Assembly: GCA_002428325.1 (NCBI GenBank)
Contig: DIVR01000065.1
Location: 149,597-213,596 of the forward strand
Direction: 5' to 3'
Source: a bacterium UBP4_UBA6127
GTDB lineage: Bacteria > UBP4 > UBA4092
Length of the DNA: 64,000 nt
Shown: positions 3,309-58,369 of the stretch, piece after piece
How the letters are laid out: each line of letters opens with the position of its first letter
How positions within the stretch are numbered: the first letter of the stretch is position 1
Translations under genes and position numbers: made by a program
The notes under the pieces: generated by a model
What the model was told of the DNA's origin: nothing
The model's input: only the letters and a program-made list of their open reading frames with translations
Databases searched by the model: none

Positions 3309-3318
3309 AGTTAAAAAA

Positions 3319-6271: not shown

Positions 6272-6307
6272 GACCTAAATTTATGAAAAGAGACGAGTTG
6301 AGCAACG

Positions 6308-7420: not shown

Positions 7421-7424
7421 AGAG

Positions 7425-11060: not shown

Positions 11061-11061
11061 T

Positions 11062-14252: not shown

Positions 14253-14294
14253 TGAATGATTTTAGTAAGGGGTTTCAAGAAGGGACAGATAGAT

Positions 14295-15515: not shown

Positions 15516-15551
15516 TACTTAATATTCCTCGAAAAAGGGGAGGATCCTGAC

Positions 15552-24742: not shown

Positions 24743-27700
24743 TCAAAGCTGGATATATTTAGGGTTATTAATGGCATCCATGAGTTTATCGGCTAATTCC
24801 TGATCATTGTCTTTTAAGTAGTTATATTCTTCCCAGGCTCCATTCTTATTGTTATTTAATAAGTGGATATATCCAAGGCCCAGGTGAGCTTTATTGAACT
24901 CAGGGGAGACTTCCAAGGCTTTATTCAGCTGCCGGATTGCTTCGGAATATTGTCCCATTTTTCCATAACCCAGGGCTAGACTGTAATATCCATCCGGGAA
25001 AGTTGGGTATTTCTGGATGACTTGTTGATATTCTTCCATGGCTTTGGCGGTCTTTTTTAAATCAAAGTAACTGTCACCTATCAAAAGATTAATTTCAGGG
25101 AAATCCTGTTTTAATCTAAGGGCTTCCTCATAACAGCGGATAGCATCATTGGGTTGGGAAATCCGGGCATAGGTTTTCCCCAGCCAAAGGTGGGCTTCCA
25201 TCATTTCTGGTTGGATTCTGACGGCCTGTTGTAAGGCATTCAATGCATCGTTATACATGGCTATATTGTAATTGGAGACTCCCAACAGGTAATAAGCTTC
25301 TGCCATCTGTGGATCATATTTTAAGGTGTTTTTGAATATGGTGATGGCTGTTTCATATTGTTTCATTCGGAGATAAGTCAGGGCCATCTGGTAATAGGCT
25401 TCTGCCATATCAGGTTTTTGGGTGGTGGCTTTGGCAAAAGCAGCAATAGCTTCGGGATAATGGCTTAATATCAACTGGCAGTTCCCCAGATTATAATAGG
25501 CCATGGTATAGGTCGGACTATAATGGATGGCTTGGGTATAATTCTCGATTCCTTCCTGGAATTTCCCTGCTTTGGAATAATGCGAGGCCAGATTGTAATA
25601 GGCTTCTGGGTAATCATTTTTAACTTGAATAGCTTTTAAAAAGGCTTTTTCCGATTCCTTTGGTTTATTGGCTCTTTCATAAATTGAGCCTAGTTCATTA
25701 TAAGCCTGGGCAAATTTAGGATTGACCTGGATCGCGGCTTTCAAAGCTGTTATGGCATCATTGTCCCGTTTAGCTTTCACATAGGTGATTCCTAATTCAT
25801 AATGGGCTTCCGGCATATCCGGTTTAATCCGGGTGGCTTTCTGGAAATCCTGGATAGCGCTGTCTAAATCTCCCATTCCCCGGGAAGATAATCCCATTTG
25901 ATACCAAGCTTCGGCATATTCAGGCCTGACTTTGACGGCTTGTTTGAATGATTTTAAAGCTTCCGGGTATCGTTCCATGGCATACAAGGAAAGCCCCATC
26001 CGGTATAAGGCTTCTTCCAGGTTGGGATGATATTTTAAGGTCATTTTATAGGTTTGAATGGCTTCGGAATATCGATGCTGGTCATGGAGAATGATCCCCA
26101 GATTATAGGAAGCTTCAATATAATCAGGTTTATAACTCAGGGCCGTCTTTATAGACTCAATGGCTTTGTCGGTTTCTTGCAGGTCCCGGTAAGCCAGTCC
26201 CCGAATATAATAAACTTCCGGCAGGTCTGATTTTTGTTTCAGAGCCTCTTCCAGGATTTCCACTGCTTTTTGGGGTTCTCCCAATCCCCGGTATATCGTA
26301 CCCAGTTGATAATAGGCTTTGATAAAATCTTTCTTCAGAGCAATGGTGTCTTCCAGGATTTTTACAGATTCCCTGAACTGATTTGTTTTATGGTAGGCTA
26401 TACTAAGGTTAAATCGGGCATCCAGATAATCTGGTTGAATTTCCACTGCTTTTTGAAGGGGACTAACAGCTTCCTGGTCTCGTGTTTGTAATAAATAAGC
26501 GGTTCCCAGATTATAATAGGCTTTGGCATATTGGGGGTTAAGTCGAACAGCTTCAAGTAATGAACCAATAGCTTCCGTTCCTTTTCCTGTTTTCAACAGC
26601 TCCACTCCCAGGTCGTTATGGGCTTCAGCCATCTTGGAATTTAAGCTGATGGCCGACTTGTAGGCTGAGAGGGCATCAGAACATCGGTTTAGTTTGGAAT
26701 AGGTTACTCCCAGATTGTAATAGGCAGAGGCTGAATTGGCATCGATGTGGAGGGCCTTTTTCAAATACTTAATGCTTTCGGGATATTGGTAATTATCCCG
26801 AAAAGAGATGCCGGCATTGATGTAGGCATTCAAGTAATCGGGGCGAATCCGTATGGCATCCAGATAAGCTTCTGAAGATTCCTTATCCCTGCCCAGTTGA
26901 TGATAGGCATATCCCAGGTTGTAATAGGCTTCGGCAAAGTCAGTTCGAAAACGGATAGCCCTCTGGTATTCTTTAATTGCTTCCATGGGCCGCTGTGTCA
27001 GGAGATAGAGACTCCCCAGTTCATATTGGCCCTGAGCTAAACGAGGATGGTAATGATTTGCTAACTTATAAGCGTCTTCTGCTTCAGCCCAATTTCGGGA
27101 ATTAGTATAAAACCGGCCCATCTGGAGGTGGGCTTCCCATAATTCAGGTTTCAACTGGACCGCTTTTTGATAGGCCTGCAGGGCATCGGCCCGTTTTCCC
27201 AGCTTTTCATCAATGATTCCGATTCGGTAGTAACTTTCACCCATCCCTGGCTCAAGTTGTAAGGCCTGTTGGTAACTGTTCAATGCTTTATCAAATTTAG
27301 CTTTGTTCTCATGGCAGAATCCTATTCCATAAAGGGTTCTGGCATCGGTTGGATTCTTTTCGGATGCCTGGGTCAGGAGACTTAAGGCTTCATCATATTT
27401 TTCCTGCCAGGCTCTGACCATGCCCTGCCAGTACAATCCATCAGAAGAATGATACCAATCACCCTGAGGAGTCTTTTTCCAGTTATCCCAAGAGACCAGG
27501 GAATCAGTGGATAAACTTAATATTTTGTAGGCGGGCAGGGATAGTTTCAGGTGATTGCCAGATTTCATGAATTGAGCATGGATTCCTACCAAAGAACCTC
27601 TTTCATCCAGGACCGGGCTGCCTCCATCCATATCGGGCAGGTTAGCTTTGACCGAGTAAATATTTCCCAATCCGGGAGCTGTAAAGACTTTCTCAATGAT

Positions 27701-28156
27701 ACCGGTTCGAATCTTCTTCCCGGGTTCCGGCTGAGTGTATATCAGTTGGTCTTCTGCCATGGGTGTGGAGGATATTGAAAAGGCTGGTGGTGTCTTTTCC
27801 GGTGGAGTGACCGATAGTTTTATCAAATCTGACTGGATATCTTCGGCTAATATTCCCTTTATTTTTAACTCGTTACCACTGGCATCCATTATTTTCAGGG
27901 TGGATGCTCCTAAAATTCCATGCCGAATGGTAATAACTTCCCCTTTAGCGGGTTTAATAAAAAAGCCACTGAGTTCGTTGGCGGTTTTTCCCCGGGAATC
28001 TATTACCAGAATTTTTACACTGTTATCCCGGGTAGCCTTAATTATTTCAGGGATTATATTTCTTGCGGTTGATAAGTAAATGCCTGTTCCGATTATTAGG
28101 AGTCCTGCAAAAATTCCTGTTCCTGCTAAAATGCGTATTTTTTTACCCCGTAGCAT
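24743..28156 (-). CDS. large TPR-repeat protein (more than 25 TPRs) with N-terminal TM anchor and trypsin-like (possibly non-catalytic) domain
   Basis: 1137 aa. N-terminal hydrophobic segment. Residues about 40-200 resemble HtrA/S1C (DLIKLSV, DGGSPVLDERGSLVGIH), but the GDSGGP motif is permuted to DGGSP. The rest is an uninterrupted TPR array (repeated AYYNLG, ALxxYxxA patterns). Confidence 0.7.
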   Translation of the reverse strand: MLRGKKIRILAGTGIFAGLLIIGTGIYLSTARNIIPEIIKATRDNSVKILVIDSRGKTANELSGFFIKPAKGEVITIRHGILGASTLKIMDASGNELKIKGILAEDIQSDLIKLSVTPPEKTPPAFSISSTPMAEDQLIYTQPEPGKKIRTGIIEKVFTAPGLGNIYSVKANLPDMDGGSPVLDERGSLVGIHAQFMKSGNHLKLSLPAYKILSLSTDSLVSWDNWKKTPQGDWYHSSDGLYWQGMVRAWQEKYDEALSLLTQASEKNPTDARTLYGIGFCHENKAKFDKALNSYQQALQLEPGMGESYYRIGIIDEKLGKRADALQAYQKAVQLKPELWEAHLQMGRFYTNSRNWAEAEDAYKLANHYHPRLAQGQYELGSLYLLTQRPMEAIKEYQRAIRFRTDFAEAYYNLGYAYHQLGRDKESSEAYLDAIRIRPDYLNAYINAGISFRDNYQYPESIKYLKKALHIDANSASAYYNLGVTYSKLNRCSDALSAYKSAISLNSKMAEAHNDLGVELLKTGKGTEAIGSLLEAVRLNPQYAKAYYNLGTAYLLQTRDQEAVSPLQKAVEIQPDYLDARFNLSIAYHKTNQFRESVKILEDTIALKKDFIKAYYQLGTIYRGLGEPQKAVEILEEALKQKSDLPEVYYIRGLAYRDLQETDKAIESIKTALSYKPDYIEASYNLGIILHDQHRYSEAIQTYKMTLKYHPNLEEALYRMGLSLYAMERYPEALKSFKQAVKVRPEYAEAWYQMGLSSRGMGDLDSAIQDFQKATRIKPDMPEAHYELGITYVKAKRDNDAITALKAAIQVNPKFAQAYNELGSIYERANKPKESEKAFLKAIQVKNDYPEAYYNLASHYSKAGKFQEGIENYTQAIHYSPTYTMAYYNLGNCQLILSHYPEAIAAFAKATTQKPDMAEAYYQMALTYLRMKQYETAITIFKNTLKYDPQMAEAYYLLGVSNYNIAMYNDALNALQQAVRIQPEMMEAHLWLGKTYARISQPNDAIRCYEEALRLKQDFPEINLLIGDSYFDLKKTAKAMEEYQQVIQKYPTFPDGYYSLALGYGKMGQYSEAIRQLNKALEVSPEFNKAHLGLGYIHLLNNNKNGAWEEYNYLKDNDQELADKLMDAINNPKYIQL

Positions 28157-44771: not shown

Positions 44772-45482
44772 TTATTTTCCAGCTTCCCTGACGAAGGCCC
44801 TAAACAGTAAAGAATGACCCTCATGTTCCTGAAGTTCTTCGGGATGCCATTGAATCCCCAGAATAAATCGGTTGTCATCAGCTTCAACAGATTCAATGAC
44901 TCCATCCTCAGCTTTTGCTGAAATCACCAATCCTTTTCCCGGTTGACGAACTGCCTGATGGTGGAAGCTGTTGGTTTGGATTTCATCTTTCCCAAGGATT
45001 TGATACAGCCTGGAGGGTTTATCAATAAAGACTTTATGGGTCAGGGTGTTTCGAGTTTCTTTCTGGCTGTGGATTATGGTGGATTCCACCTGGGATGGAA
45101 TATCCTGGATAAGTCTCCCTCCCAGGCCCACATTGATAGTCTGGCAGCCCAGGCAGATACCCAGAACGGGAATCTTTTTTTGTAAGGCTTCCCTGAAATA
45201 GTTCAATTCATAATCCTGCCTGATTTCATGCATTACCTGGGTCTTTTCATGTTTTTCTTCCTGATAAATAGAAGGATTATGGTCATTTCCCCCAGTCAAT
45301 AGAAGCCCGTCAATCAGGGAAACTGCTTCTCTGTAATCCTCCGGTTGTGTTTGTTGGGTAAGAATGAGAGGAATCCCCCCTGCTTGCAAAATTGCTCTTG
45401 AATAAGCATTGTTCAGGTAATACCGGTCCCGGTTATCTTTAGTCTCAAAATCAGGGGTAATTCCAATAATTGGTTTTTTCAT
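44772..45482 (-). CDS. class I glutamine amidotransferase, gamma-glutamyl-GABA hydrolase (PuuD/peptidase C26)-like
   Basis: GICLGCQ catalytic Cys and C-terminal His/Glu. 236 aa. Confidence 0.75.
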   Translation of the reverse strand: MKKPIIGITPDFETKDNRDRYYLNNAYSRAILQAGGIPLILTQQTQPEDYREAVSLIDGLLLTGGNDHNPSIYQEEKHEKTQVMHEIRQDYELNYFREALQKKIPVLGICLGCQTINVGLGGRLIQDIPSQVESTIIHSQKETRNTLTHKVFIDKPSRLYQILGKDEIQTNSFHHQAVRQPGKGLVISAKAEDGVIESVEADDNRFILGIQWHPEELQEHEGHSLLFRAFVREAGK

Positions 45483-47398
45483 GTGACGCTCCTGGCAATC
45501 TTATGCTATTGATAATAGGGAAATCTTATCTTAAAACAGGAACTGAGAACAATCTGATTATGGGAACTGAAGAAACATCAAAGCCTACGGGTACAAATCT
45601 AGTGGAAACTATTTTTCATAAGAATTGGCTGAAAGCGGGGTTGATGATTCTGCTAACCCTGTTGGCATTCAGTTCCATATTTCAGGCGGGTTATTTATGG
45701 GATGATGAAATTATCAGCCTCAATTCAAACCTATTTCAAAGCGGAGCGGGTTTATTGAAGATATGGACTCAACCCGGGACTATTATTGGGGATGAGCATT
45801 TCTGGCCCATGGAATATACCACTTTCTGGCTGGAAGCCCACATTTGGGGACTTCATCCCATTACCCTGCATAGTGTCAATCTTTTGATCCATCTACTCAA
45901 TGCTATCCTGGTCTGGCAGGTCCTTAAAAAACTGGAAATTCCGGGAAGCTGGATTGCCGGATTGATATTTGCTTTACATCCGGTTCAAGTAGAATCGGTA
46001 GCCTGGATCTTTGAAAGAAAAGGTTTGTTATCAACTTTCTTTTATCTTATGGCTGGCTGGTGTTATCTGGAATATTCTCACAACCGGAGGAAAAGTGTTC
46101 TTTTAGTATCAATGATTTGCCTGGGATTTTCATTGCTAAGTAAAAGTATTGGAGTAACCTTCCCTTTAGCATTGATACTTATTATGGGATGGAAGAAAGG
46201 GAAAATATTTAAATCAGATTGGATAGAAATGATACCTTTCTTTCTGGTAACCGGATTGATTGTGGGGGGAGATTATTGGATTCATGCAAGAGTCAATCCT
46301 GCTAACTTAGGATGGGGGCTTGGGGAAAGAATAGCCCATGCTTTTTATGGTCTCAGCCTATATTTTGAGACTTTCTTCATTCCCCTGAAGCTTATGGGAT
46401 TTTATCCTTCTTTGGCTCATTCAACCAGCCATTGGCCCATTGCCGGAACCTTGATTTTGATGGCTCTGGGCGGAGGGGGATTATATTACTGGATCGTTAA
46501 GCAAAAGAGGGGAATCCTGACCGGATTCCTTTTTTATTGCCTGACTCTCTTACCGGTTCTGGGCTTCATGGAATTTTCCTTTTTAAGATTATCCCCGGTT
46601 GCTGACCGATATCAGTATCTGGCTTGTCTGGGGCTGGTTGTCCTGGTCTCTGCTGGATTGGGACAGGTGACAGATTACCTGGAAAACCATCAGAAAGAGT
46701 TAAAAACTATTGGGATGATGCTTACAGCGGGATATATCCTTACCCTGGGAAGTATGACCCTGGTACATGCGGAAAATTATAAAGATAATGAACACTTCTT
46801 TGGATATTGTGTGAAAGAGAATCCTCAGTCCTGGTATGCACGTTCCATGCTGGGAAAGAGTTTGATGGAAAAGGGTGAAGTGAAAGAAGCTGAATACCAA
46901 TTCACGAAAGCCCTGGAAATTTGGCCGGAATGTCCTGATGCCCGGATATTTCTGGCTTCTCTAAAACAAAAGCAGACTCAATATACCGAGGCGCTTCAAT
47001 TATATCGTTCTGTTAAAACCGGGAATCCCCGGATGCTCTATTTTGCCCAAGTCCAGTCAGGTTGGATTTTAATGGCCCTCAATCGTCCTCAGGAAGCGAT
47101 AGATACCCTCCGTAAAGCGAGTGTGTATTTTCCGAATAATCCCGATGCTTATATCCAAATGGGGATGGTATATGACCGGTTGAACCAATTTGATAAGGCT
47201 AATCAGGCTTATCAAAAGGCCCTTGAACTCGATTGGAACCTTGCCCTGGCTCATAACAACCTGGGAGTAAATCTGGCTCAATCAGGCAAATTGAGAGAAG
47301 CAGATAAACATTTTGATGAAGCTCTTAGGATCAATCCTCAATATGAGTCAGCCCGGAGAAATTCGACATCTGTCAAAAGAGCTCTGAAAGAACTTTAA
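45470..47398 (+). CDS. GT-C fold membrane glycosyltransferase-like protein (PMT/TMTC-like, DUF1736-type) with C-terminal TPR domain
   Basis: About 10 TM N-terminal region with YLWDDE in the first loop. C-terminal TPRs (about residues 480-640). The likely start is the Met at 45560 (MGTEET). Confidence 0.65.
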   Translation: MVFSCDAPGNLMLLIIGKSYLKTGTENNLIMGTEETSKPTGTNLVETIFHKNWLKAGLMILLTLLAFSSIFQAGYLWDDEIISLNSNLFQSGAGLLKIWTQPGTIIGDEHFWPMEYTTFWLEAHIWGLHPITLHSVNLLIHLLNAILVWQVLKKLEIPGSWIAGLIFALHPVQVESVAWIFERKGLLSTFFYLMAGWCYLEYSHNRRKSVLLVSMICLGFSLLSKSIGVTFPLALILIMGWKKGKIFKSDWIEMIPFFLVTGLIVGGDYWIHARVNPANLGWGLGERIAHAFYGLSLYFETFFIPLKLMGFYPSLAHSTSHWPIAGTLILMALGGGGLYYWIVKQKRGILTGFLFYCLTLLPVLGFMEFSFLRLSPVADRYQYLACLGLVVLVSAGLGQVTDYLENHQKELKTIGMMLTAGYILTLGSMTLVHAENYKDNEHFFGYCVKENPQSWYARSMLGKSLMEKGEVKEAEYQFTKALEIWPECPDARIFLASLKQKQTQYTEALQLYRSVKTGNPRMLYFAQVQSGWILMALNRPQEAIDTLRKASVYFPNNPDAYIQMGMVYDRLNQFDKANQAYQKALELDWNLALAHNNLGVNLAQSGKLREADKHFDEALRINPQYESARRNSTSVKRALKEL

Positions 47399-47586: not shown

Positions 47587-49668
47587 ATGAATGAACCGAT
47601 TAACAGCAAAAACAATCTAAACATCTCTGCCGTTATCTTTTTTGTAATGACCCTGTTGATTTCAGGAGGAGTTTATCTTTACACCCTGGCTCCAACTGTT
47701 ACCTTTGGGGATAGTGGGGACTTTATTACAGCCGCTTATGCCTTGAGGTTTGCTCATCCGCCAGGGTATCCTGTATTTATTATCTTAGGCAAATTATTTT
47801 CTCTTCTGCCCATATCCGGTGAGATTGCTTACCGAATCAATTTTATGTCAGCTTTTTTTTCAACTCTATCAGTTGGGATGGTCTATATCCTTGTCCTCTT
47901 TTTGGTCAGTGGTGGGAAGTCTATATTCAAGAAACAAAATAACGGCCCGTTATCGGAAAACCAGGAAATATTAAATCCGGGGATTCATGCTTGTGCTATG
48001 TTGGGAGCCTTAAGCTTTGCTTTCTCAGGTACTTTCTGGTCCCAGGCCCTGGTGGCTAAAGTTCATCCATTGGCAGCCTTTTTAACCGCTGTAGTATTTC
48101 TGCTTATTTTGAAATATGGGTGGACAGGAGAACGAAAATTCTGGTTTGCTTCTGTATTTATTTGGGGATTCAGCCTGGGGACCCACTTTACACCTGTTTT
48201 GTATATCCTCCCGGTGCTTCTTTTCTTATGGTATGAAAAAAAGTTAAAAGATATATTGAGTGGAAGTTCTTTGATATATGGAGTATCGTTGGCTTTATTG
48301 GGTTTTTCAGTAAATCTTATGATTCCTTTGGTGAGTCCTCATTTAATTGAAGTGGAATGGGGCTTAGGAGATAGTTGGCAGGGATTTAAACATATCCTAT
48401 TGCGGGGGGATTATGCTCCATATGAGTGGGCACGTCCTTTTTCAGCTTTAGCTGAACAGATATCCACAGCGGCCGGGACCCTGATCACAGGACAATCCAC
48501 CTCTCTCTTGGGTTTGTTATATGGATTAATCATTACTTGTATGGGCTTGCTGGGGATTCTCTGGCTGATAAAGAACCGTCGAGGTGAATTGGCTCTTCTG
48601 GCCGGAGCCGCTTTCATGGTCTGGGGATTTTATATTGCCAACAGTAATCATCCGATGACCCGGCAACTTTCCCTGGAAACAAGAGATATCTTCTTTATTC
48701 CGGCCTATATGATTTTTGGTATTTGGGTTGGACTGGGGCTTGTGGGAATATATCAAAAAAAGTTCCTGGAGGGAGAAAGTCCAACCGGCAATAATAAAAC
48801 CGGAGTGATCATCTGGATGATTGTGATTATCTTTCTTTCTTGCCTTGGTTTCAGTATCCAAATCCAAAGGCATAATGAGAGGGAATATTTCCTGGCTAAA
48901 GATTACGCCCGATGCCTTATGGATACCATGGAAAAAGATGCTATCTATATTGGGGACGATGATATGCACTTGTTCCCTTTATGGTATCTGCAGCAAGTTG
49001 AAGGGTATCGAACGGATATTTTGATATTTTCCAGGACTTCTTTCTATAAGCAATGGTATTATGACAACCTTAAAAAAAGAAACCTTCCTCAATTTCAGCT
49101 GCCGGCTTTTTCAGAAGGTATGGTTCCCAAAGATATCTTGAAAGCCCAGGCTTTCCTGGATAAACAATTATTTGCTCTGTTTACCCTGAATCTGGCCGAA
49201 CGCCCCTGTTATTTCTATCAGAAATATCCACTGAAGATAACTCCACCCTTACCTGTTAGCCAGGTTGGATTATTATATCGAGTTACTCAGAATCCCCTGA
49301 AGGGAAGCATTCAAGCAGAGCCTTACCCCTATCTGCCTCCTGCCAATTCATATCAATACCAGTTGGGACTTCAACCCTTAGGTGAAAGAGATTTCTGGAG
49401 AAACTGGGCCATTGAACGGTTGTCAGATTACCATGATCTGGAAGGGCAATATTGGATGGGCCAAATGAACCTTATCCGGGCTGAAGCAGAACTCCTGCAA
49501 GCAGTTGATCTGAATCCTTTTAATGCCAGGGGACATTTCGATCTGGGTGAGTATTATCTTACTCAGGGAGAATTTGAAAAAGCCAGAGATTCTTATGCCA
49601 GAGCTTTATACATTAATCCCGATATGGAGAAAGCTCGGGTCGCCATAGATAAACTTAAGATTAGATAA
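47587..49668 (+). CDS. DUF2723/TMEM260-like GT-C membrane protein with C-terminal TPR domain
   Basis: Hallmark APTVTFGDSGDFITAA...HPPGYP N-terminal motifs of DUF2723. Polytopic. C-terminal TPRs (AELLQAVDLNP..., ARALYINPD). Confidence 0.7.
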   Translation: MNEPINSKNNLNISAVIFFVMTLLISGGVYLYTLAPTVTFGDSGDFITAAYALRFAHPPGYPVFIILGKLFSLLPISGEIAYRINFMSAFFSTLSVGMVYILVLFLVSGGKSIFKKQNNGPLSENQEILNPGIHACAMLGALSFAFSGTFWSQALVAKVHPLAAFLTAVVFLLILKYGWTGERKFWFASVFIWGFSLGTHFTPVLYILPVLLFLWYEKKLKDILSGSSLIYGVSLALLGFSVNLMIPLVSPHLIEVEWGLGDSWQGFKHILLRGDYAPYEWARPFSALAEQISTAAGTLITGQSTSLLGLLYGLIITCMGLLGILWLIKNRRGELALLAGAAFMVWGFYIANSNHPMTRQLSLETRDIFFIPAYMIFGIWVGLGLVGIYQKKFLEGESPTGNNKTGVIIWMIVIIFLSCLGFSIQIQRHNEREYFLAKDYARCLMDTMEKDAIYIGDDDMHLFPLWYLQQVEGYRTDILIFSRTSFYKQWYYDNLKKRNLPQFQLPAFSEGMVPKDILKAQAFLDKQLFALFTLNLAERPCYFYQKYPLKITPPLPVSQVGLLYRVTQNPLKGSIQAEPYPYLPPANSYQYQLGLQPLGERDFWRNWAIERLSDYHDLEGQYWMGQMNLIRAEAELLQAVDLNPFNARGHFDLGEYYLTQGEFEKARDSYARALYINPDMEKARVAIDKLKIR

Positions 49669-49677
49669 GTTTATTAT

Positions 49678-50061
49678 CTAATTGATTTTGTGAGTAGAGA
49701 ATTCCTTACTGGTCGGATTGTAATTTGGACAGGTAATGGGATCCCCTATGACTCCTGAGGCGGCACCGTTGATGGTATATTCATCTTCTGTTGTTGGGCA
49801 TCGGGCGGATTGTGGATTTCTCAAGTAAGCGGTTAACTCTGACAGGGTCAAACTATCTTCATTTGTCTTTTTGTTTTCTATCGCATATTGAGCTTTTGCA
49901 TCTTCCATGATCCTGAGATTGTTAATACAGGATTTTGCATTAGCTTGCAGCCTACTTTTCATGTAATAAGGAATAGCTATTGAAGCCAGAATCCCAATAA
50001 TTCCCACCACAATCATAATCTCAATGAGGGTAAATCCTTTTTGATTGCGTTGCTTCTGCAT
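49678..50061 (-). CDS. type IV pilin-like protein (prepilin N-terminal cleavage/methylation domain), paralog 1
   Basis: Class III signal MQKQRNQKG|FTLIEIMIVVGIIGILASIAIP (Phe+1, Glu+5). Four Cys. Conserved C-terminal CPNY motif shared with the upstream paralog. Confidence 0.85.
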   Translation of the reverse strand: MQKQRNQKGFTLIEIMIVVGIIGILASIAIPYYMKSRLQANAKSCINNLRIMEDAKAQYAIENKKTNEDSLTLSELTAYLRNPQSARCPTTEDEYTINGAASGVIGDPITCPNYNPTSKEFSTHKIN

Positions 50062-50086
50062 AATGTCTATCCTTTTTTTAATAAAT

Positions 50087-50124
50087 AAGGCGTCATGTGA
50101 TCTCGGCGAACACCATGACGCCTT
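50087..50124 (-). promoter_or_regulatory. intercistronic stem-loop between the tandem pilin genes
   Basis: Perfect 11-bp stem AAGGCGTCATG/CATGACGCCTT with a 16-nt loop, between the pilin-2 stop and the pilin-1 RBS. Confidence 0.55.
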
Positions 50125-50157
50125 ATAAACTTTTTTTAAATGAAGAACTTATCAGGT

Positions 50158-50526
50158 TTATGGATATTTGTGACCTGTAAATTCATCACCAGTTCCATAG
50201 TTCGGGCAAACCGGCGGAGTCCCAACAATGGTCAATGTATAAGAAGAGCCATTGGACGGACAAACAAAAGAACCAACGGAATCACGCATGTAAGGTTCCA
50301 AGTCAGTCTGGGTTACCGATGCGGAATTGTCTTTCTTTTCTTCCAGGGCCCACTGCTGCTGTGCGCCATCAATCTGTTTCAGATTATTGACGCAGGCTTT
50401 GGCGTTCGCCTGAATACGGGCACGAATGAAGTTCGGGATCGCGATAGCGGCCAGAATACCAATGATGGCGACTACGATCATGATTTCAACGAGTGTAAAA
50501 CCTTTTTGGTTACGTAAGGATTTCAT
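50158..50526 (-). CDS. type IV pilin-like protein, paralog 2
   Basis: MKSLRNQKG|FTLVEIMIVVAIIGILAAIAIP. Start set at MKSLRN (50526). Preceded by a sigma-54 promoter. Confidence 0.85.
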   Translation of the reverse strand: MKSLRNQKGFTLVEIMIVVAIIGILAAIAIPNFIRARIQANAKACVNNLKQIDGAQQQWALEEKKDNSASVTQTDLEPYMRDSVGSFVCPSNGSSYTLTIVGTPPVCPNYGTGDEFTGHKYP

Positions 50527-50584
50527 TAATCTTACCCCCCTTCTACATTCAATTTTCACTAATTATAAAGACAACCTATCTATA

Positions 50585-50600
50585 AAGCAACCTCTATGCC
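50585..50600 (-). promoter_or_regulatory. sigma-54 (RpoN) promoter upstream of pilin paralog 2
   Basis: Minus strand reads TGGCAT-AGAGG-TTGCT. GG and GC are spaced exactly as in TGGCAC-N5-TTGC. It lies about 60 nt upstream of the pilin-2 ATG and next to a sigma-54 activator gene. Confidence 0.65.
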
Positions 50601-50772
50601 AAAAAAAAATCTATTTATTTGTGATGAGATAACATGAATAAACTCAAGCATAATATTGAATTTACGATTTTCTTGGTAAGAGATAAGGCTTATAAAAATG
50701 AGTTATTCTGTAACCATAAGTAGGCAACCTGTCACTTTAGTTATACATAAAAATCTTCTGATAGGTGATAAA

Positions 50773-52149
50773 TCAATCAGAGATATTATATTTGGCTAAC
50801 TTATCATAAAGGCATTTTCGGCTTAAACCGAGAGCTTTAGCGGCCTGCGAACGATTACCTCCAGCGCTTTGAAGAGCTTTGATAATGATGCGTTTTTCCG
50901 CTTCCGCTGTGATGTGATTGATATGGTCCGATAAATTAATGTCTTCAGAAGGCAGGGTTATCGAGGGAGAAGGGATTGTGGTTCCTGGTTTGATTTCAAT
51001 GGGAATAGCATCTTCCTCAATAATATCTGAGGGTGAAAGGGCAATGGCTCTTTGAATGAAATTCTCAAATTCTCTAACATTGCCGGGCCAGGAATACTCT
51101 TGGATGAATTTCAAGACTGGGGTAGATATTTTTTGAATGTTTTTTCCAAACTTATTATTATATTTTTCCCTGAAATATTCGAATAAGAGAGGGAGGTCAT
51201 CTCTTCGTTCCCGGAGGGGAGGGAGGAAAATGGAGATGACATTTAGCCGGAAATAAAGGTCTTCCCGGAATGATTTCTCTTCCACTGCTTTTACTAGGTC
51301 CTTATTAGTAGCAGCAACCACCCTGACATCGACCTTGATGACATTATTACCTCCAACCCGTTCAAATTCCCTTTCCTGAATGACTCTCAGAAGTTTGGCC
51401 TGGGTCGGTAGGGTCATATCCCCAATTTCATCCAGAAATATGGTTCCGCCCTGGGCCATCTCAAATTTACCCAGCCTGCGTTCAGAAGCCCCGGTAAAAG
51501 CGCCTCGTTCATGGCCAAAGAGCTCAGATTCCAGCAATCCTTCGGGGATAGCGACACAATTCATCTTAATAAAAGGTTTTTTCTGGCGATAACTATTGAT
51601 ATGGATGGCATGGGATACCAACTCTTTACCGGTTCCGCTTTCGCCAATAATCAAAACGGTCACATCCAGTTTGGATACCTGGGATATCAGCCGATAGACT
51701 TCTTTCATCCGTTCGCTGGTGCCGATAATATTTTCGTATTCGCGTTCCTGCTGTTTTAATGCCTGCAGTTCTCTTTGTAGAAGATTTTTTTCCAAAGCGC
51801 GGCGGACGACCACCCGCATTTCATTAATATCGAAAGGTTTGGTGAAATAATCATAGGCGCCAATATCCATAGACTGATAGGCAATTTCCCGGGAACCGAA
51901 AGCTGTCATCATAATGACTGTCGATTCCTTATCTATTTTTCTGATTTCCAACAGAGTCTGAATCCCATCCATCCGGGGCATTTTCATGTCCAGTATGACA
52001 ACATCAAAGGATTTATTTTTGATTTTCTCCAGAGCCTTCAAACCATCTTCTGCAGTTTCAACGTAATAACCTTCTTTATTCATTAATTCTGACAAGGTGA
52101 AACGAAGATCTTCTTCATCATCAACAATCAGGATTTTAGACTGGTTCAT
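50773..52149 (-). CDS. sigma-54-dependent response regulator (NtrC/PilR family: REC, AAA+, Fis-type HTH)
   Basis: Receiver domain, AAA+ with GESGTGKE and the GAFTGA sigma-54 contact motif, and C-terminal HTH (QAAKALGLSRKCLYDKL). Confidence 0.9.
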   Translation of the reverse strand: MNQSKILIVDDEEDLRFTLSELMNKEGYYVETAEDGLKALEKIKNKSFDVVILDMKMPRMDGIQTLLEIRKIDKESTVIMMTAFGSREIAYQSMDIGAYDYFTKPFDINEMRVVVRRALEKNLLQRELQALKQQEREYENIIGTSERMKEVYRLISQVSKLDVTVLIIGESGTGKELVSHAIHINSYRQKKPFIKMNCVAIPEGLLESELFGHERGAFTGASERRLGKFEMAQGGTIFLDEIGDMTLPTQAKLLRVIQEREFERVGGNNVIKVDVRVVAATNKDLVKAVEEKSFREDLYFRLNVISIFLPPLRERRDDLPLLFEYFREKYNNKFGKNIQKISTPVLKFIQEYSWPGNVREFENFIQRAIALSPSDIIEEDAIPIEIKPGTTIPSPSITLPSEDINLSDHINHITAEAEKRIIIKALQSAGGNRSQAAKALGLSRKCLYDKLAKYNISD

Positions 52150-53750
52150 ACGATATCCTCTTTATCTGGTATTACCGGCAGCCAGATTTGGAAAGTGGTT
52201 AGCTCCCCTTGTTGGCTGTCAACTTCAATCCACCCGCTATGGGCTGCGATTATCTGATGGGAAATAGCTAAACCTAATCCCGATCCCGTATTTTTGGTGG
52301 TAAAGAACGGATCAAAGATTTTTTCGGTTAATTCTGGGGGAATGGCCGGGCCGTTATTGGATATTTCAACCACGATAAAACCGGTATGGGGAATCCTATA
52401 GTCCTGTCGGGGAGGAGCTTGATAACTCCGGACCCTTATCAGAGCCTTTTGCGGCATATTAGGGGTAACCGCATCTATGGCATTCAGGAAAATATTTAAT
52501 AAAGCCTGCATGATTTTATCTTTTTCTATCCGAAGCCTCGGAAGGGGATTATCCATTATCTCATCGATTTCAATGCTGGATAAATATTTAGGGGATTGTT
52601 TGGCAACAAAAAGGGCATCCTTCAGGACATCTTCCAGATGGGACCATTGGGTTCCCCCTTCAGTAGCATGGGAAAAATCCAATAACTCTTCTACGACATG
52701 ATTGAGTCGATCAATTTCTTTGACAATAATGGTGGCGTATTTATGGTTTTTATCATCCAAGGGGGTATCCTCGGAAATCATTTGGGCCAACCCCTTCATA
52801 GAACCCAGAGGATTCCTGATTTCATGGGCTAGCCCGGTGGAAAGGGTCCCGATAGCGGCCAATCGGTCAGACCGGTGCAGTTGCTGCTGGATTTGTTTGA
52901 TACGACTCAAGTCCTTGAAGGATGCGACTACTCCCAGTAATATATCGTTTGTATCTTTCATCAGGTTGATACTGATGCCGATGGGAATCAACCCGGTTGA
53001 AGGAGTATTGATGGAAACCTCTTCTGAAGAATAAACAACCTTTCCTTCCAGGGTTTGCTTGAACATTGCCCGAACCCTTTGGTTTTCCAGCACATCAGGG
53101 ATTATATCAAAGATGGATTTCCCTTCCGCATAGCTTTCGGGAAGGCCCAGAATGGTTTCAGCCGCTGTATTAATCGTATTGATGGTTCCCTGGTTGTCCA
53201 GGGTCAGCAATCCTCCCCCCAGGCTTTCGAATATGTATTTATTCCGTTCATGGACATAAGTCCTCAGGTTCTGGACCATGATATTGAAATTATCCTGTAA
53301 GACACCGATTTCCTCATGGGCAGATATTTTGGGAGGGGTTACCCATTCACCAGTGGAAAGTTTTTTGATGATTTCATTTATCTGTTTCAGAGGTTTGACC
53401 ACCACATAACTCAGGAGGAATCCAACGATAGCCGATAGAAGAGCGCCTCCCAGCAGAAGAGAAAATAAAGAATCGGTTATTCGAAGGGTATCTTCATGAG
53501 TTACTCCTGTCCGGGGAAGATTGGTGCCCAGGTATTGGATCATGATAATTCCAATGAATAATACCAGCAGACAGAATAGCAGGGGGGTGGCAAAAATCAG
53601 CCTGACCCGCCATTGTTCTTTTTGGTAATTGGGAGGTGCATCCGGTGGATTTGTTTTTATATCAGGTTTTTCAGGGACCCCAAGCCTCGATTGCTTTTCA
53701 GCCTTTCCAGGGTCAGGCGATTTCCTGTTATTATTTTTTAGCAGGGGCAT
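52146..53750 (-). CDS. sensor histidine kinase (TM, HAMP, PAS, HisKA, HATPase; PilS/NtrB-like)
   Basis: Two TM segments. H-box (LSTGLAHEIRNPL). N, G1 and G2 boxes (NAIDA, GSGLGL). 4-nt overlap with the downstream regulator. Confidence 0.85.
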   Translation of the reverse strand: MPLLKNNNRKSPDPGKAEKQSRLGVPEKPDIKTNPPDAPPNYQKEQWRVRLIFATPLLFCLLVLFIGIIMIQYLGTNLPRTGVTHEDTLRITDSLFSLLLGGALLSAIVGFLLSYVVVKPLKQINEIIKKLSTGEWVTPPKISAHEEIGVLQDNFNIMVQNLRTYVHERNKYIFESLGGGLLTLDNQGTINTINTAAETILGLPESYAEGKSIFDIIPDVLENQRVRAMFKQTLEGKVVYSSEEVSINTPSTGLIPIGISINLMKDTNDILLGVVASFKDLSRIKQIQQQLHRSDRLAAIGTLSTGLAHEIRNPLGSMKGLAQMISEDTPLDDKNHKYATIIVKEIDRLNHVVEELLDFSHATEGGTQWSHLEDVLKDALFVAKQSPKYLSSIEIDEIMDNPLPRLRIEKDKIMQALLNIFLNAIDAVTPNMPQKALIRVRSYQAPPRQDYRIPHTGFIVVEISNNGPAIPPELTEKIFDPFFTTKNTGSGLGLAISHQIIAAHSGWIEVDSQQGELTTFQIWLPVIPDKEDIV

Positions 53751-54528
53751 TAGGTTTCTCTTGGATGACTTTTATCTGGGTTTGCAGCTCGGGAATATGG
53801 GATTGAGCCGCTTTGGCATAGGGTTGAATATTTAATTTTTTAACTTCTTTCCAGGCTTCCAGGGCTCCTGCCGGGTCTTTCAGCCTTTCCAGGGTGAAAG
53901 CCAGATACTCCATGACATTGGCTCGGTCCCAATCTTCCATCTTTTTTCGGGAAGCCAGCCGGAACTGGATTTTAGCATTGGAATAATCCTGGAGTTTATG
54001 AAAATAGAGCAAGCCTAAATCATAATTTAATTCATATCGGTCAGGATTATTTCTCAATCCTTCCTGGAGAAAATCGATGGCTTGTTGAGGGGCATTTAAT
54101 TTCTTCCAGAGCCACCAGCTTCCCACCCGATAGGCTTCTAAAAATTGAGGGTCTAACCTGGTTACTACCTCGATTAAAGGCATCAGGTCCGCATCATGAG
54201 ACTTTGAATGTGATGAATGTTCATGCCCATGCAAATGTTCAGGGTGTCCCGGGTGAATCATTTCATGTTCTTCAGGGGTGACCGAGGCATGAAAATAATC
54301 ATCGACTTTAATCCAGGCCAAATCGGCCAGGGTCACTCGGATTTCTCTGAAGGCTCCGGAAACCACTTTACCGGGGGTGATCCGGCTGGAGCCATGGGAA
54401 TTTTCATCATGACCACTCATTTCTTTTTTCTGCCTGTTTAGCTGGCTGCTTATCATAACTAAGAGGATAGCCAATATCAGCAGGCTGAACCATAAAACTC
54501 GGTTATTTTTGTCCAAGATAGATTTCAT
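53731..54528 (-). CDS. His-rich membrane-anchored TPR protein
   Basis: N-terminal TM. His-rich segment HPGHPEHLHGHEHSSHSKSH. C-terminal TPRs. Overlaps the start of the histidine kinase by 20 nt. Confidence 0.55.
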   Translation of the reverse strand: MKSILDKNNRVLWFSLLILAILLVMISSQLNRQKKEMSGHDENSHGSSRITPGKVVSGAFREIRVTLADLAWIKVDDYFHASVTPEEHEMIHPGHPEHLHGHEHSSHSKSHDADLMPLIEVVTRLDPQFLEAYRVGSWWLWKKLNAPQQAIDFLQEGLRNNPDRYELNYDLGLLYFHKLQDYSNAKIQFRLASRKKMEDWDRANVMEYLAFTLERLKDPAGALEAWKEVKKLNIQPYAKAAQSHIPELQTQIKVIQEKPNAPAKK

Positions 54529-54708
54529 AATAAATATCAGTAATATTAACCTCGGCCGTATTTTGGGATGTCAGGGAACAGTCAATTCCCGGGTATCATC
54601 TGAAATTGTATCAAAAAAACATACTTTCAGTTCATTTGTTCTGTGGAATATGCCCATCTAAAAAAAACTTAGGTTTTGTTCCTGATTGAACCAACGGATT
54701 TATTCTCT

Positions 54709-55020
54709 CTATTCAGGGAGTCTGACTTTGATAATGTTATTTTCAATGGTCCATTCCAGCTTTTTCAAGTGGATGGAATTGATTAAGTCCAACTCTCCGG
54801 TTACCAGGCTGAATTTCCAGCCATGCCAGGGACAGGTAACCTGAGTTCCCTCCAGGAATCCTTCACTGAGAGGCCCTCCCGTATGCGGACATGAATCTAG
54901 AATGACATGGTAAGTTCCCTCAATATTAAACACAGCAATGGGAACATCTTCAATGATTTTGGATTTTACAGAACCAGGGGGAATATCAGAAACCGGGCAA
55001 AAATCATAATATGGGGCCAT
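54709..55020 (-). CDS. Rieske [2Fe-2S] domain protein (NirD-like small ferredoxin)
   Basis: CPH...CPWHGW (CXH-Xn-CXXH) Rieske ligands in a 103-aa protein. Confidence 0.8.
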   Translation of the reverse strand: MAPYYDFCPVSDIPPGSVKSKIIEDVPIAVFNIEGTYHVILDSCPHTGGPLSEGFLEGTQVTCPWHGWKFSLVTGELDLINSIHLKKLEWTIENNIIKVRLPE

Positions 55021-56632: not shown

Positions 56633-58369
56633 ATGAAAAAAATTAGATTTATATGGATAGCCTTTGGGATTGGACTTTTATGCGCCTATCTGGGATTTAA
56701 GGGATTAGGTAATGCCTATTTCTGGGATGACGAGTCCTTGGTCGGAATCACAGCCACCAATCTCCTGGAAACCGGGAAAATGGCAGCCTGGGATGGGGTG
56801 AATCTCTATAGTTATCGAAATGGCGGGATGGTTACTGATGATTTACGGATGAATACCCCACCTTTGGATGTATGGGTTTGCGCACTTTCCTTTAAAATAA
56901 TGGGACCCTCAGTATTATCCGGCCGACTCCCTTTTGTCCTGGCAGGATTGTTAGCCCTGATGTTTTTCTTCCTGATATTAGAGAAGGAATTTCCCCAGCA
57001 AGACTCTCTGAAAGTCTATATGCTGGTGAGTTTTGCCTTTTCGACTCTTTTTCTGTTGAACATTAGACAGTGCCGGTATAACTCTTTTGCCATAATGAGT
57101 TCCCTGGGATGTTTTTATTTCTATTTAAAAACCTTGGATGATAAAAAAATCTGGCCGTTTGCAGGGATGGCCTTGATGGGTGTCCTCCTTTTTTATGCCA
57201 ATTCCATGTTTTGCGCGGCCTTTCTGGTCTCCATTGGAATGATGCACCTGATATTCCATCACCGGGAGTATTCTGGGTTTCAATGGAAAGCTATTTCTCT
57301 GGCTATCGCCGGATTTCTGGCGCTGACGGTCCCTTATGCCCTTTATTATAAAATCTGGATTCGGCATGATTTCGATTTTATATATGCCGATTCTTCTCTG
57401 ATTCGAAAATGTAAACTGATTTTCTGGTATCTGCGAGATATGAATCTCATCAATGCCCTTCCCTGGATGTTCCTGGTCCTTCTGGGAATCCTCAAAGGGA
57501 GAGAGAAAACAGCCCTTCCCCATGGGAACAAAATCATTCAATGGGGATTCATTGGGGTAATGAATATTCTGATGATAGCCCTGATATCGCCTCAACCAAC
57601 CAATAATCCAGGGTATGGGGATGTCCGGTACTTGATGGTTTCCTATGCTTTTATGATAGGGATATCCGGATATATTCTCTGGCTCCTTTACCGTAAATAT
57701 CCATTGGCAGGGCATCTTTTACTGGTGATATATATCTTTTCAAATATCTTTACCTTGATTCCTTTTTCTAAGCAATTGAAACTGATTCCTTATAACCTGA
57801 ATTTCCAGTGGCTGTTGCCGGCCTATCTGGTGGAAATCCATTCAGAGTATCCTACCGGCACTCCCCCAGTAGCGGAATTTCTGTTGCAGAATGTAAAACC
57901 AGGAGAAATGGTAATGAGCTGGCCGGAGCATACGGTTTATCCTCTGCGTTTTATCACCGGGAAGAAAATATTCTACGGCTGTGGGCTGAACCGATATACC
58001 CACTTGGACCCTGCGAAGATTCGAGCTTTGGATTCCCGCTTACTTCTGGAGGATAATTATCCTGACTGGTTTGTCTCTTATGGATTGAGAAATGATACCC
58101 CGTCTTTGCTGGAGATGTTTCAGCGAACCCATTGGGAGGGGGATAGGGAGATTCAATATCGGTATCGAATGGTGAAATATATTGACTATTACTGGGACCA
58201 GACCCAACGGCCGGAAATATATTGGCACCATTTTGGACCGAAACGGGATTTTGCTCCGGTGCTGGAGGGAATCTATATCTTTAAAAGGGTCCGTCCGGAA
58301 GAAGACCAGACTCGAAGAACTGAGCCTGAAAGGGATAGGGCAGCATCAGAATCAAAAGCAGGAAGATAA
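56633..58369 (+). CDS. GT-C membrane glycosyltransferase, ArnT/PMT_2 (GT83/GT39-like) family
   Basis: YFWDDES in the first periplasmic loop and PPLDVW in the second. About 12 TM. Charged C-terminal tail. Confidence 0.65.
   Translation: MKKIRFIWIAFGIGLLCAYLGFKGLGNAYFWDDESLVGITATNLLETGKMAAWDGVNLYSYRNGGMVTDDLRMNTPPLDVWVCALSFKIMGPSVLSGRLPFVLAGLLALMFFFLILEKEFPQQDSLKVYMLVSFAFSTLFLLNIRQCRYNSFAIMSSLGCFYFYLKTLDDKKIWPFAGMALMGVLLFYANSMFCAAFLVSIGMMHLIFHHREYSGFQWKAISLAIAGFLALTVPYALYYKIWIRHDFDFIYADSSLIRKCKLIFWYLRDMNLINALPWMFLVLLGILKGREKTALPHGNKIIQWGFIGVMNILMIALISPQPTNNPGYGDVRYLMVSYAFMIGISGYILWLLYRKYPLAGHLLLVIYIFSNIFTLIPFSKQLKLIPYNLNFQWLLPAYLVEIHSEYPTGTPPVAEFLLQNVKPGEMVMSWPEHTVYPLRFITGKKIFYGCGLNRYTHLDPAKIRALDSRLLLEDNYPDWFVSYGLRNDTPSLLEMFQRTHWEGDREIQYRYRMVKYIDYYWDQTQRPEIYWHHFGPKRDFAPVLEGIYIFKRVRPEEDQTRRTEPERDRAASESKAGR

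Follow-up and report, generated by a model that had tools for sequence, protein, structure and literature searches.

A putative σ54-dependent regulatory cassette for small type IV pilins, with a TPR membrane protein beside its kinase, in an uncultured UBP4 bacterium

Introduction

Why does the gene of a membrane protein with tetratricopeptide repeats (TPR) lie directly upstream of a two-component system and two pilin genes? This question is raised by a 64-kb stretch of DNA (contig DIVR01000065.1; hereafter the window) from the uncultured bacterium UBP4_UBA6127. In the window, the genes of a transmembrane (TM)-TPR protein, a HAMP-PAS sensor histidine kinase, and an NtrC-family activator are followed by a putative σ54 promoter, a pilin gene (pilin-2), an RNA hairpin, and another pilin gene (pilin-1). 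A first-pass annotation, made from the sequence alone, had compared this row with the pilS-pilR-pilA genes and had regarded the TPR protein as a metal-responsive or otherwise novel accessory sensor. I performed a computational analysis of the locus and its relatives.

PilS-PilR and a σ54-dependent pilA gene are known in Pseudomonas aeruginosa, Myxococcus xanthus, and Geobacter. Regulatory logic of the PilR/σ54/pilA type is already known. What is new here is the architecture of the kinase, the presence of a possibly recruited accessory protein of ATP-binding cassette (ABC)-2 exporters, and a conserved GT-C-type glycosyltransferase neighbour. Judging from the comparisons below, the locus is probably a self-contained regulatory cassette for small type IV pilins with a TPR partner.

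Gene order and its conservation

All positions below are those of the 64-kb window, and all five genes of the cassette are on the minus strand. The gene order and every sequence feature listed in the first-pass annotation were found again on this strand at the same positions. The overlap of the kinase gene with the upstream TPR gene by 20 nucleotides (nt) is among them (53731-53750). The kinase and activator genes share 4 nt.

Is this arrangement common in other lineages? Related loci (given L-numbers) were recovered via the TPR protein. A word-indexed search gave four close homologues. A search of a genome collection with an intermediate alignment of the TPR family led to three loci, and a scan of the same kind with the close-family TPR profile gave no match. 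The loci represent six lineages (window/L001, L005/L006, L007, L008, L009, and L019). The full synteny is kept in these six diverged lineages, in which the TPR proteins are 38-93% identical. Wherever the TPR protein is at least 38% identical to that of the window, its gene is always followed by those of the kinase and the activator, then by the putative σ54 promoter and the pilin genes, and finally by a TMEM260-like gene in convergent orientation. The sequence of L009 stops inside the first pilin gene, and its further downstream genes are unseen. The first-pass annotation had staked its proposal on the conservation of the TPR gene with the kinase gene in relatives. This expectation was borne out, as the TPR gene lies directly upstream of the kinase gene in every lineage above the same identity level. 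The two genes overlap by 17-20 nt in window/L001, L005, and L007.

Regulatory sequences of the cassette

The sequence TGGCATAGAGGTTGCT is the sole exact match of the TGGCAY-N5-TTGCW consensus in the 64 kb. The expected number is 0.14, and 13 of 100 shuffled sequences give at least one match. Taken alone, the uniqueness of the match is suggestive of a promoter. Elsewhere in the window, one-mismatch matches are no more frequent than expected by chance. Since the match in the window is weak against the shuffles when taken alone, the case for a promoter rests on the related loci. The exact -24/-12 consensus occurs once each in L001, L005, L006, L007, L008, L009, and L019, always in the spacer between the activator and pilin genes. 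No exact consensus was found outside this spacer in the 22 loci, and all seven of the loci that reach the spacer have it. The -24/-12 element stands out in the alignment, and the surrounding DNA is strongly diverged. Thus, the near-consensus promoter that had been proposed between the activator and pilin-2 turned out to be an exact match that is kept in seven related loci. Transcription is predicted to start near 50575, which leaves a leader of ~49 nt to the conserved Shine-Dalgarno sequence and the ATG at 50526.

An 18-bp dyad, TGTA-N10-TACA, was found upstream of the promoter. It lies at most 220 nt upstream in seven of the eight regions, at a similar distance in the window, L005, L007, and L019 (Table 1). 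At the same stringency, the background frequency is 0.19 per kb, or ~0.04 expected per region. I propose that the dyad is a candidate target of the activator, because its position is normal for a site of an enhancer-binding protein. An element that may be the extended -10 sequence of a promoter, TGaTACAAT, lies upstream of the TPR gene. It is kept as TGcTACAAT in L005 amid diverged upstream DNA and is likely to be the promoter of the TPR-kinase-activator operon. No known RNA family was found in 49400-54800.

Table 1. Features of the cassette in the window, and positions of the upstream dyad in related loci
Feature	Position	Strand	Remarks
TM-TPR protein gene	53731-54528	-	265 aa; open reading frame (ORF)
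Sensor histidine kinase gene	52146-53750	-	534 aa; ORF, Pfam
NtrC-family σ54 activator gene	50773-52149	-	458 aa; ORF, Pfam
Pilin-2 gene	50158-50526	-	122 aa from ATG; the ORF list extends to GTG at 50559
Pilin-1 gene	49678-50061	-	127 aa; ORF, Pfam
Putative σ54 promoter	50601-50586	-	TGGCATAGAGGTTGCT; GG 50600-50599, GC 50588-50587
Candidate enhancer (upstream activating sequence) dyad	50730-50747	-	TGTATAACTAAAGTGACA; TGTA-N10-TACA with one mismatch; -146 from TGGCA
Dyad in L005	-147 from TGGCA		0 mismatches
Dyad in L007	-147 from TGGCA		1 mismatch
Dyad in L019	-147 from TGGCA		0 mismatches
Dyad in L009	-160 from TGGCA		0 mismatches
Dyad in L008	-116 from TGGCA		1 mismatch
Dyad in L024	-115 from TGGCA		0 mismatches
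Candidate extended -10 element	54605-54613	-	TGaTACAAT; ~75 nt upstream of the TPR gene
Stem-loop	50126-50085	-	13-bp stem, then UUAUU; -26.5 kcal/mol, z -4.5 to -4.8
His/Glu-rich loop of the TPR protein	54196-54279	-	residues 84-111, TPEEHEMIHPGHPEH + LHGHEHSSHSKSH; family alignment
TMEM260-like GT-C glycosyltransferase gene	47587-49668	+	C-terminal TPR; PF11028 1.3e-40

The kinase and the activator

The kinase has the Pfam domains HAMP, PAS, HisKA (with H309), and HATPase_c. An alignment of six orthologues revealed a common plan of a variable cytoplasmic tail, TM1, a loop of ~25 residues, TM2, HAMP, PAS, and the catalytic core. TM1 is conserved (R50, A54, P56, L58, V63, and G67 are invariant), and the loop is variable. 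No periplasmic sensor domain was found in the kinase in this alignment. PilS has a multi-helix membrane domain with about six TM helices and no HAMP domain. In contrast, all six orthologues have two hydrophobic helices followed by HAMP and PAS. The best NCBIfam match of the kinase is AtoS (312 of the 646 bits needed), and its nearest solved structure is that of ZraS.

The activator matches Sigma54_activat (7.8e-73), Response_reg (4.6e-32), HTH_8 (8.4e-14), and AAA_lid_14 of Pfam far above the cut-offs. Its translation contains the GAFTGA motif, the Walker A motif GESGTGKE, and the receiver aspartate. By these signatures, it is assigned as an NtrC-family enhancer-binding response regulator with a receiver domain, an AAA+ domain carrying GAFTGA, and a Fis-type helix-turn-helix domain. 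The best NCBIfam match is AtoC (513 of the 714 bits needed); the NtrC-type match is likewise below the cut-off. The nearest solved structures are those of NtrC4 and NtrC1 of Aquifex. No PilR- or PilS-specific NCBIfam model was matched, in a library that may contain none.

How far does the comparison with pilS-pilR-pilA hold? The logic of a kinase, a σ54 activator, a σ54 promoter, and a pilin holds as had been proposed, but the sensor part of the kinase is not PilS-like. Thus, the system of the window would work like PilSR, yet it is not filed here as a PilS/PilR orthologue.

L019 has a second kinase/σ54-activator pair (1807-4983, minus strand), a few kb upstream of a row of exporter, TPR, kinase, activator, and pilin genes. 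This pair is encoded on the opposite strand, and two unrelated genes lie between it and the exporter. The arrangement recalls the two PilSR pairs of Myxococcus.

The TM-TPR protein and its family

The AlphaFold model of the 265-aa protein (predicted local distance difference test score, pLDDT, 85.4; predicted template modelling score, pTM, 0.73) has a TM helix (residues 9-38), a long helix (52-82) holding an FRE..W.K.D.YFH motif, a poorly ordered loop (~92-115), and a solenoid of eight helices (116-257; pLDDT 95-99). All Pfam TPR matches of this protein are below the cut-offs. A Foldseek search against PDB matched the solenoid to generic TPR folds, namely CTPR, the TPR domain of OGT, MamA, and PilF. 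The assignment as a TPR solenoid protein is thus confirmed at the level of the predicted fold. No solved structure covering the N-terminal module was found. A PilF-like pilotin role was also considered and rejected; the matches are those of a generic TPR fold, and the protein has no lipobox Cys.

Where does the protein start? The source annotation starts it at M37 (54420; 229 aa), which removes the TM helix, and its relatives are called at 306 aa. An exact look-up of the 265-aa sequence gave no match because of this shorter start. Since the TM helix is present in all of the close homologues aligned and in 52 of 54 parsed family members, the M1 start at 54528, giving the 265-aa form, is preferred. 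The flanks of the TM helix are net positive on the N-terminal side and acidic on the C-terminal side in five of six close homologues. This charge distribution favours a periplasmic TPR domain.

Is the TPR protein a peculiarity of these pilin loci? An exhaustive profile search found 2,409 TM-TPR representatives at E<=0.001, including 432 at E<=1e-10. The family features are an N-terminal TM helix, a W-x-K-x-D-x-Y-F-H motif, an insert of variable length, and an MPLIRLVT-LDP-F--AY motif (MPL..T.LDP.F..AY) followed by TPR-like helices in the C-terminal part. An alignment of 16 diverse members shows no variation at W72, Y78, H80, D126, Y133, G136, and N161, and the window protein has all of the family features. 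Pfam scans of larger fusion members gave TPR matches and one weak BACON match. In the distant members, the TM-TPR gene is the third gene after those of an ABC ATPase and an ABC2_membrane_2 permease (L010, L013, L014, L016, and L017/L018/L020/L021). Overall, it directly follows the ATPase and permease genes in L009, L010, L012-L014, and L016-L022. Such an exporter is not adjacent in the window, L001, L005, L007, and L008. No ABC-2 permease was found anywhere in the 64-kb window. L009 and L019 bridge the two contexts, with the exporter, TM-TPR, kinase, activator, and pilin gene(s) in one row. Since the distant members follow an exporter and L009 and L019 join both arrangements, the ancestral role of the family is most likely that of an ABC-2 exporter accessory subunit, and the linkage to the kinase would be derived. 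Rather than being a one-off accessory sensor, the protein is a member of a broad family whose genes usually come after those of an ABC-2 exporter.

In the exporter-linked loci, the gene after the TM-TPR gene sometimes encodes a small protein or, in L020-L022, a Wzy_C and TPR protein. In L020 (7686-9617), L021, and L022 (1093-3078), the TM-TPR gene overlaps this gene, which encodes 640-660 aa with an O-antigen ligase-like Wzy_C domain and a TPR tail. The Wzy_C superfamily includes pilin O-glycosylases. The Wzy_C and GT-C neighbours together hint at a glycan-related role for the module of exporter and TM-TPR protein. In L010 (4093-6455) and L014 (1562-3904), two radical SAM genes, one of them with SPASM, lie directly upstream of the exporter/TM-TPR operon. 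This arrangement was seen in a metagenome-assembled genome labelled as Planctomycetia and its relatives.

The His-rich stretch HPGHPEHLHGHEHSSHSKSH, to which the first-pass annotation had given a metal-responsive meaning, was confirmed as residues 92-111 of the TPR protein, with a conserved part and a variable HGHEHSSHSKSH tail. TPEEHExIHPGHPEH is invariant in the five closest homologues, and the tail varies even at 66% identity. The core E-[ED]-H-x-x-I-H-P-x-H is also present in the L019/L009 clade; that is, it is conserved in the kinase-linked clade. Two modes of the insert are seen in the whole family, and a short insert with 0-2 His was found in 23 of the 54 members that were parsed. The long inserts contain 10% His, as compared with 2.4% in the rest of the protein (~four-fold), and stretches such as HHHHHHHH or HEHEHIHEHE occur in some of them. 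The confidence of the AlphaFold model is low over the loop. No Pfam or NCBIfam match to ZraP/CpxP (LTXXQ) or to another metal-binding family was found for the TPR protein. The enrichment of His at a single loop is compatible with the binding of metals or protons. Since only a part of the His-rich stretch is conserved, metal sensing is kept here as a possible role.

The pilin genes and the hairpin

Both pilins match N_methyl (PF07963) with 39-41 bits, as compared with a cut-off of 21.2 (E 1e-10 for pilin-2 and 4.9e-10 for pilin-1). Pilin-2 has the leader MKSLRNQKG followed by FTLVEIM. Both proteins carry a class III signal peptide, with a short basic leader ending in Gly, Phe at +1, Glu at +5, and a hydrophobic α1 helix. 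G9, F10, and E14 are invariant across two pilin alignments. Are they members of a named pilin family? Both are below the cut-off of every named pilin equivalog. GspG (TIGR01710) gives 42.7-45.7 bits instead of 88.85, and the match is confined to the N-terminal helix; the Myxococcus PilA model gives 59 of the 400 bits needed. The nearest solved relatives, found via the N-terminal helix, are Geobacter PilA-N, Myxococcus PilA, and PAK pilin. The predicted structure has a helix at residues 12-62 and a head with pLDDT 47-69, whose best fold match has E = 5.

Pilin-2 is 100% identical in L001. The pilin-2-type orthologues are 69-84% identical, the pilin-1-type orthologues are 60-78% identical, and the identity between the two groups is ~50%. 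On the basis of these identities, pilin-1 and pilin-2 are regarded as separate conserved orthologue groups. Pilin-2 is the probable major subunit. Its Shine-Dalgarno sequence and ATG are conserved in the related loci. C45 and C107 are invariant (pilin-2 numbering), and C89 is invariant in one alignment and present in at least 90% of the sequences in the other. H119 is near-invariant, and Glu115 is invariant in the 12-sequence alignment (A8). The odd number of Cys residues together with the His residue makes a Cys3-His metal site possible, rather than only a disulfide, the organism being one from anoxic cultures.

This type of pilin is very common, with >6,000 homologues at E<=1e-10. In two distant genomes (L024 and L025), the pilin gene stands alone, and a σ54-like -24/-12 element is still present, at positions -76 and -81, respectively, relative to the ATG. 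Kinase, activator, and TPR genes are not adjacent in these two loci, and the dyad is also present in L024. Thus, σ54 control seems to be a general property of this small pilin type. L024 also has a truncated pilin fragment, FTLLEILLVVAIIGILMAIAIPNFIRS, followed by a stop codon (at ~8580-8670); it lies ~350 nt upstream of the intact, putatively σ54-driven gene. L007 has three tandem near-identical pilin-2-type genes and then one pilin-1-type gene (14012-16159). A separate putative terminator hairpin lies behind each of the pilin-2-type copies. A σ54-like element of its own, CGGCATGGTAATTGCT, is present at the third copy, and a σ70-like TTGACA element takes its place at the second.

The hairpin that had been noticed between pilin-2 and pilin-1 is present (Table 1). 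A strong stem-loop was found after every pilin-2-type gene (window, L005, L007, L008, and L019; z -2.9 to -4.8). Most of these stem-loops have a U-tract behind them. Their stem sequences are often unrelated, with L008, L019, and the first two copies of L007 as examples. A GGCGUCAU stem core is common to the window, L005, and the third L007 copy. The U-tract of the window is interrupted (UUAUU), and a simple terminator scanner missed the hairpin, the loop being longer than 8 nt. The L007 and L008 copies have clear U-runs. Since strong hairpins recur with unrelated stems and mostly with U-tracts, the hairpin of the window is best read as an intrinsic terminator or attenuator.

Neighbourhood of the cassette

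The TMEM260-like gene is convergent on the pilin genes in L001, L005/L006, L007, L008, and L019, even where the other flanks differ. A functional link, with this enzyme modifying the pilins, is speculative. A search of the accessible literature found no paper linking TMEM260-like enzymes to pilins. In total, three GT-C-type glycosyltransferase genes flank the cassette, at 45470-47398 and 56633-58369 in addition to the gene in Table 1 (all on the plus strand). They are TMEM260-like, and PMT_2 with TPR tails.

The rest of the window contains a dcw cell-division cluster with FtsZ, ribosomal protein genes, LpxK, Mla, and other housekeeping genes. In the otherwise standard dcw cluster (ftsI to ftsZ, 1107-16832), a single 771-aa ORF at 11062-13377 (plus strand) encodes MurC (Mur ligase domains) fused to MurB (FAD_binding_4 and MurB_C). 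A 1,137-aa protein encoded at 24743-28156 (minus strand) consists almost wholly of TPR repeats, and the window is unusually rich in TPR-containing envelope proteins.

Discussion

How might the cassette work? The TPR, kinase, and activator genes probably form one operon with overlapping frames, driven by a σ70-type promoter of its own. The kinase would phosphorylate the NtrC-family activator, which most likely binds the TGTA-N10-TACA dyad ~147 nt upstream and would use ATP to open the σ54 promoter before pilin-2. The hairpin would end most transcripts after pilin-2, and read-through would give a lower level of pilin-1. This core circuit, from the kinase and the σ54 activator through the dyad and the -24/-12 promoter to pilin-2, with attenuated read-through to pilin-1, is highly plausible, and I place considerable confidence in it.

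What does the kinase sense? Since it has no periplasmic sensor domain, the signal would have to come from within the membrane or from the cytoplasmic PAS domain. There is a precedent for an input from the membrane, as pilins act on PilS within the membrane (PMC11960060). The co-translated single-pass TPR protein is the most likely membrane partner of the kinase and might report the state of the envelope, such as the activity of an exporter, the load of pilin, or possibly metal at the His/Glu-rich loop. That the TM-TPR protein is a functional partner of the kinase is a tentative assignment, which could well prove wrong. Going further, an ABC-2 accessory subunit may have been recruited as the sensing partner of a sensor-less kinase. 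The transcription of the pilin genes would then be tuned to the activity of a PilGHI-like exporter, to the processing of pilins in the periplasm or their glycosylation by the nearby GT-C enzymes, or to metal at EEHxxIHPxH. This extended form is unlikely as a whole.

The TPR protein may instead be a factor of pilin biogenesis, that is, an exporter accessory protein like those of PilGHI, which lies in the kinase operon as a leftover or for co-expression. The kinase would in that case respond to another input, such as a cytoplasmic cue via PAS or, like PilS, the helices of pilins in the membrane. The invariant residues of its TM1 also fit the sensing of pilin helices. The genes of all distant family members come after those of an ABC ATPase and an ABC-2 permease, the exporter adjoins the TPR gene in L009 and L019, and Myxococcus PilG, which is needed for piliation, carries the annotation of an accessory factor of an ABC exporter (PMC3546991, PMC3724824). 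However, the TPR gene is still directly upstream of the kinase gene in the four lineages without an adjacent exporter, the two genes overlap in three of these four, and the window has no ABC-2 permease at all. I regard this alternative as a whole as somewhat unlikely. A role of the TPR protein in the periplasm, as a metal sensor or chaperone whose His-rich loop makes pilin expression metal-responsive in the way that ZraP acts on ZraSR, is quite improbable. The loop core conserved across the kinase-linked clade, the four-fold enrichment of His in long inserts with occasional His runs, and ZraS as the nearest solved relative of the kinase point in this direction, and the three conserved Cys and the near-invariant His of the pilins could form a metal site. 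These are offset by the unconserved HGHEHSSHSKSH tail, the many members with short inserts poor in His, the lack of similarity to ZraP/CpxP or any metal-binding family, the low confidence of the modelled loop, and a periplasmic topology deduced from charges.

Are the two small proteins really pilins? They might be pseudopilins of a type II secretion-like system or another filament, or abundant secreted or periplasmic proteins that share a class III signal peptide. They are short (~113 residues when mature) and below the cut-off for every named pilin family (43-46 vs 88.85 bits for GspG and 59 vs 400 for Myxococcus PilA). Their head domain is poorly modelled with no significant fold match, and no pilus assembly gene was found in the 64-kb window. 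On the other hand, the nearest solved sequences are true pilins, and σ54 control, a strong putative terminator, and the tandem amplification in L007 are typical of highly expressed major subunits. Size is no obstacle either, as PilA5 of the Thermus narrow pilus, with 111 aa, forms fibres. A role other than that of pilins is thus hardly probable.

Several observations weigh against the proposed cassette with its TPR partner. The missing assembly genes are one of them, and rpoN was not found in the window either. L008, L009, and L019 have no overlap between the TPR and kinase genes. Part of the synteny could be inherited rather than selected, given the shared ancestry of the lineages. Sequence conservation is not strong in the TM helix of the TPR protein, and a crude family-wide count of charges showed no clear preference for either topology (17, 21, and 16). 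The solitary pilin genes of L024 and L025 have σ54-like promoters without these neighbours; therefore, the TPR partner is not needed for σ54 control of this pilin type in general.

How does the cassette compare with known systems? As in PilSR-pilA, the genes of a kinase and an NtrC-family activator lie immediately upstream of a major pilin gene with a -24/-12 promoter, a dyad lies upstream at the distance of an enhancer, and a putative terminator follows the pilin gene. The differences are the two TM helices with HAMP and PAS in place of the six-TM domain of PilS, proteins that are nearer to the AtoSC, ZraSR, and NtrC types (below the cut-offs), and the added co-translated TM-TPR protein. In Myxococcus xanthus, pilS and pilR precede the σ54-dependent pilA gene, which is co-transcribed with three more genes, pilG (exporter accessory factor), pilH (ATPase), and pilI (permease), all of which are needed for piliation (PMC3546991, PMC3724824, PMC6060248). 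L009 and L019 likewise hold the genes of an ABC ATPase, an ABC-2-type permease, a small accessory membrane protein, a kinase, a σ54 activator, and a pilin. However, the exporter and accessory genes precede the kinase gene in L009 and L019, while they follow pilA in Myxococcus, and no exporter genes are adjacent in the lineage of the window. In the shared list of parts, the TM-TPR protein may be a counterpart of Myxococcus PilG (MXAN_5782).

A kinase that depends on a membrane neighbour would not be without analogy. BceS with BceAB and LiaS with LiaF are intramembrane-sensing kinases that rely on accessory membrane proteins. The kinase of the window resembles them in having two TM helices and a minimal extracytoplasmic loop, and in the location of its gene beside that of a membrane protein or transporter component possibly supplying the signal. 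It differs in that BceS and LiaS belong to Firmicutes, work with OmpR-type regulators in the response to peptide antibiotics, and have no sequence relationship to it. The output in the window is a σ54 activator with pilin genes, and the host is a diderm (the window has LpxK and Mla genes). ZraPSR is another σ54 two-component system with a small accessory protein carrying metal-ligand residues, and the nearest characterised relatives of the kinase and the activator include ZraS and ZraR. However, ZraS has its own periplasmic sensor domain, and ZraP is soluble and not a TM-TPR protein. The TPR protein has no detected similarity to ZraP, and its fold is a TM helix with TPR.

The control of pilin genes by σ54 and an adjacent two-component system is textbook knowledge. 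The present locus adds to it an uncultured lineage, which comes from hydrocarbon-degrading methanogenic cultures, and a very abundant class of small pilins. The conserved promoter, dyad, and putative terminator are parts that are usable directly in reporter assays. The new element is the partner protein, through which a large unnamed family of ABC-2 accessory proteins is tied to the regulation of pili. In Myxococcus, the part played by PilGHI has lacked a clear explanation since 1998, and the list of parts of its pilSR-pilA-pilGHI locus recurs in L009 and L019. If the TPR protein is a relative of PilG or a co-sensor of the kinase, it would suggest what such exporters do for pili. If the co-sensor reading is true, the exporter subunit would provide a pilus-specific counterpart, in a diderm, to the "flux sensing" coupled to transporters, and it would give the first functional handle on several hundred uncharacterised proteins, possibly including Myxococcus PilG.

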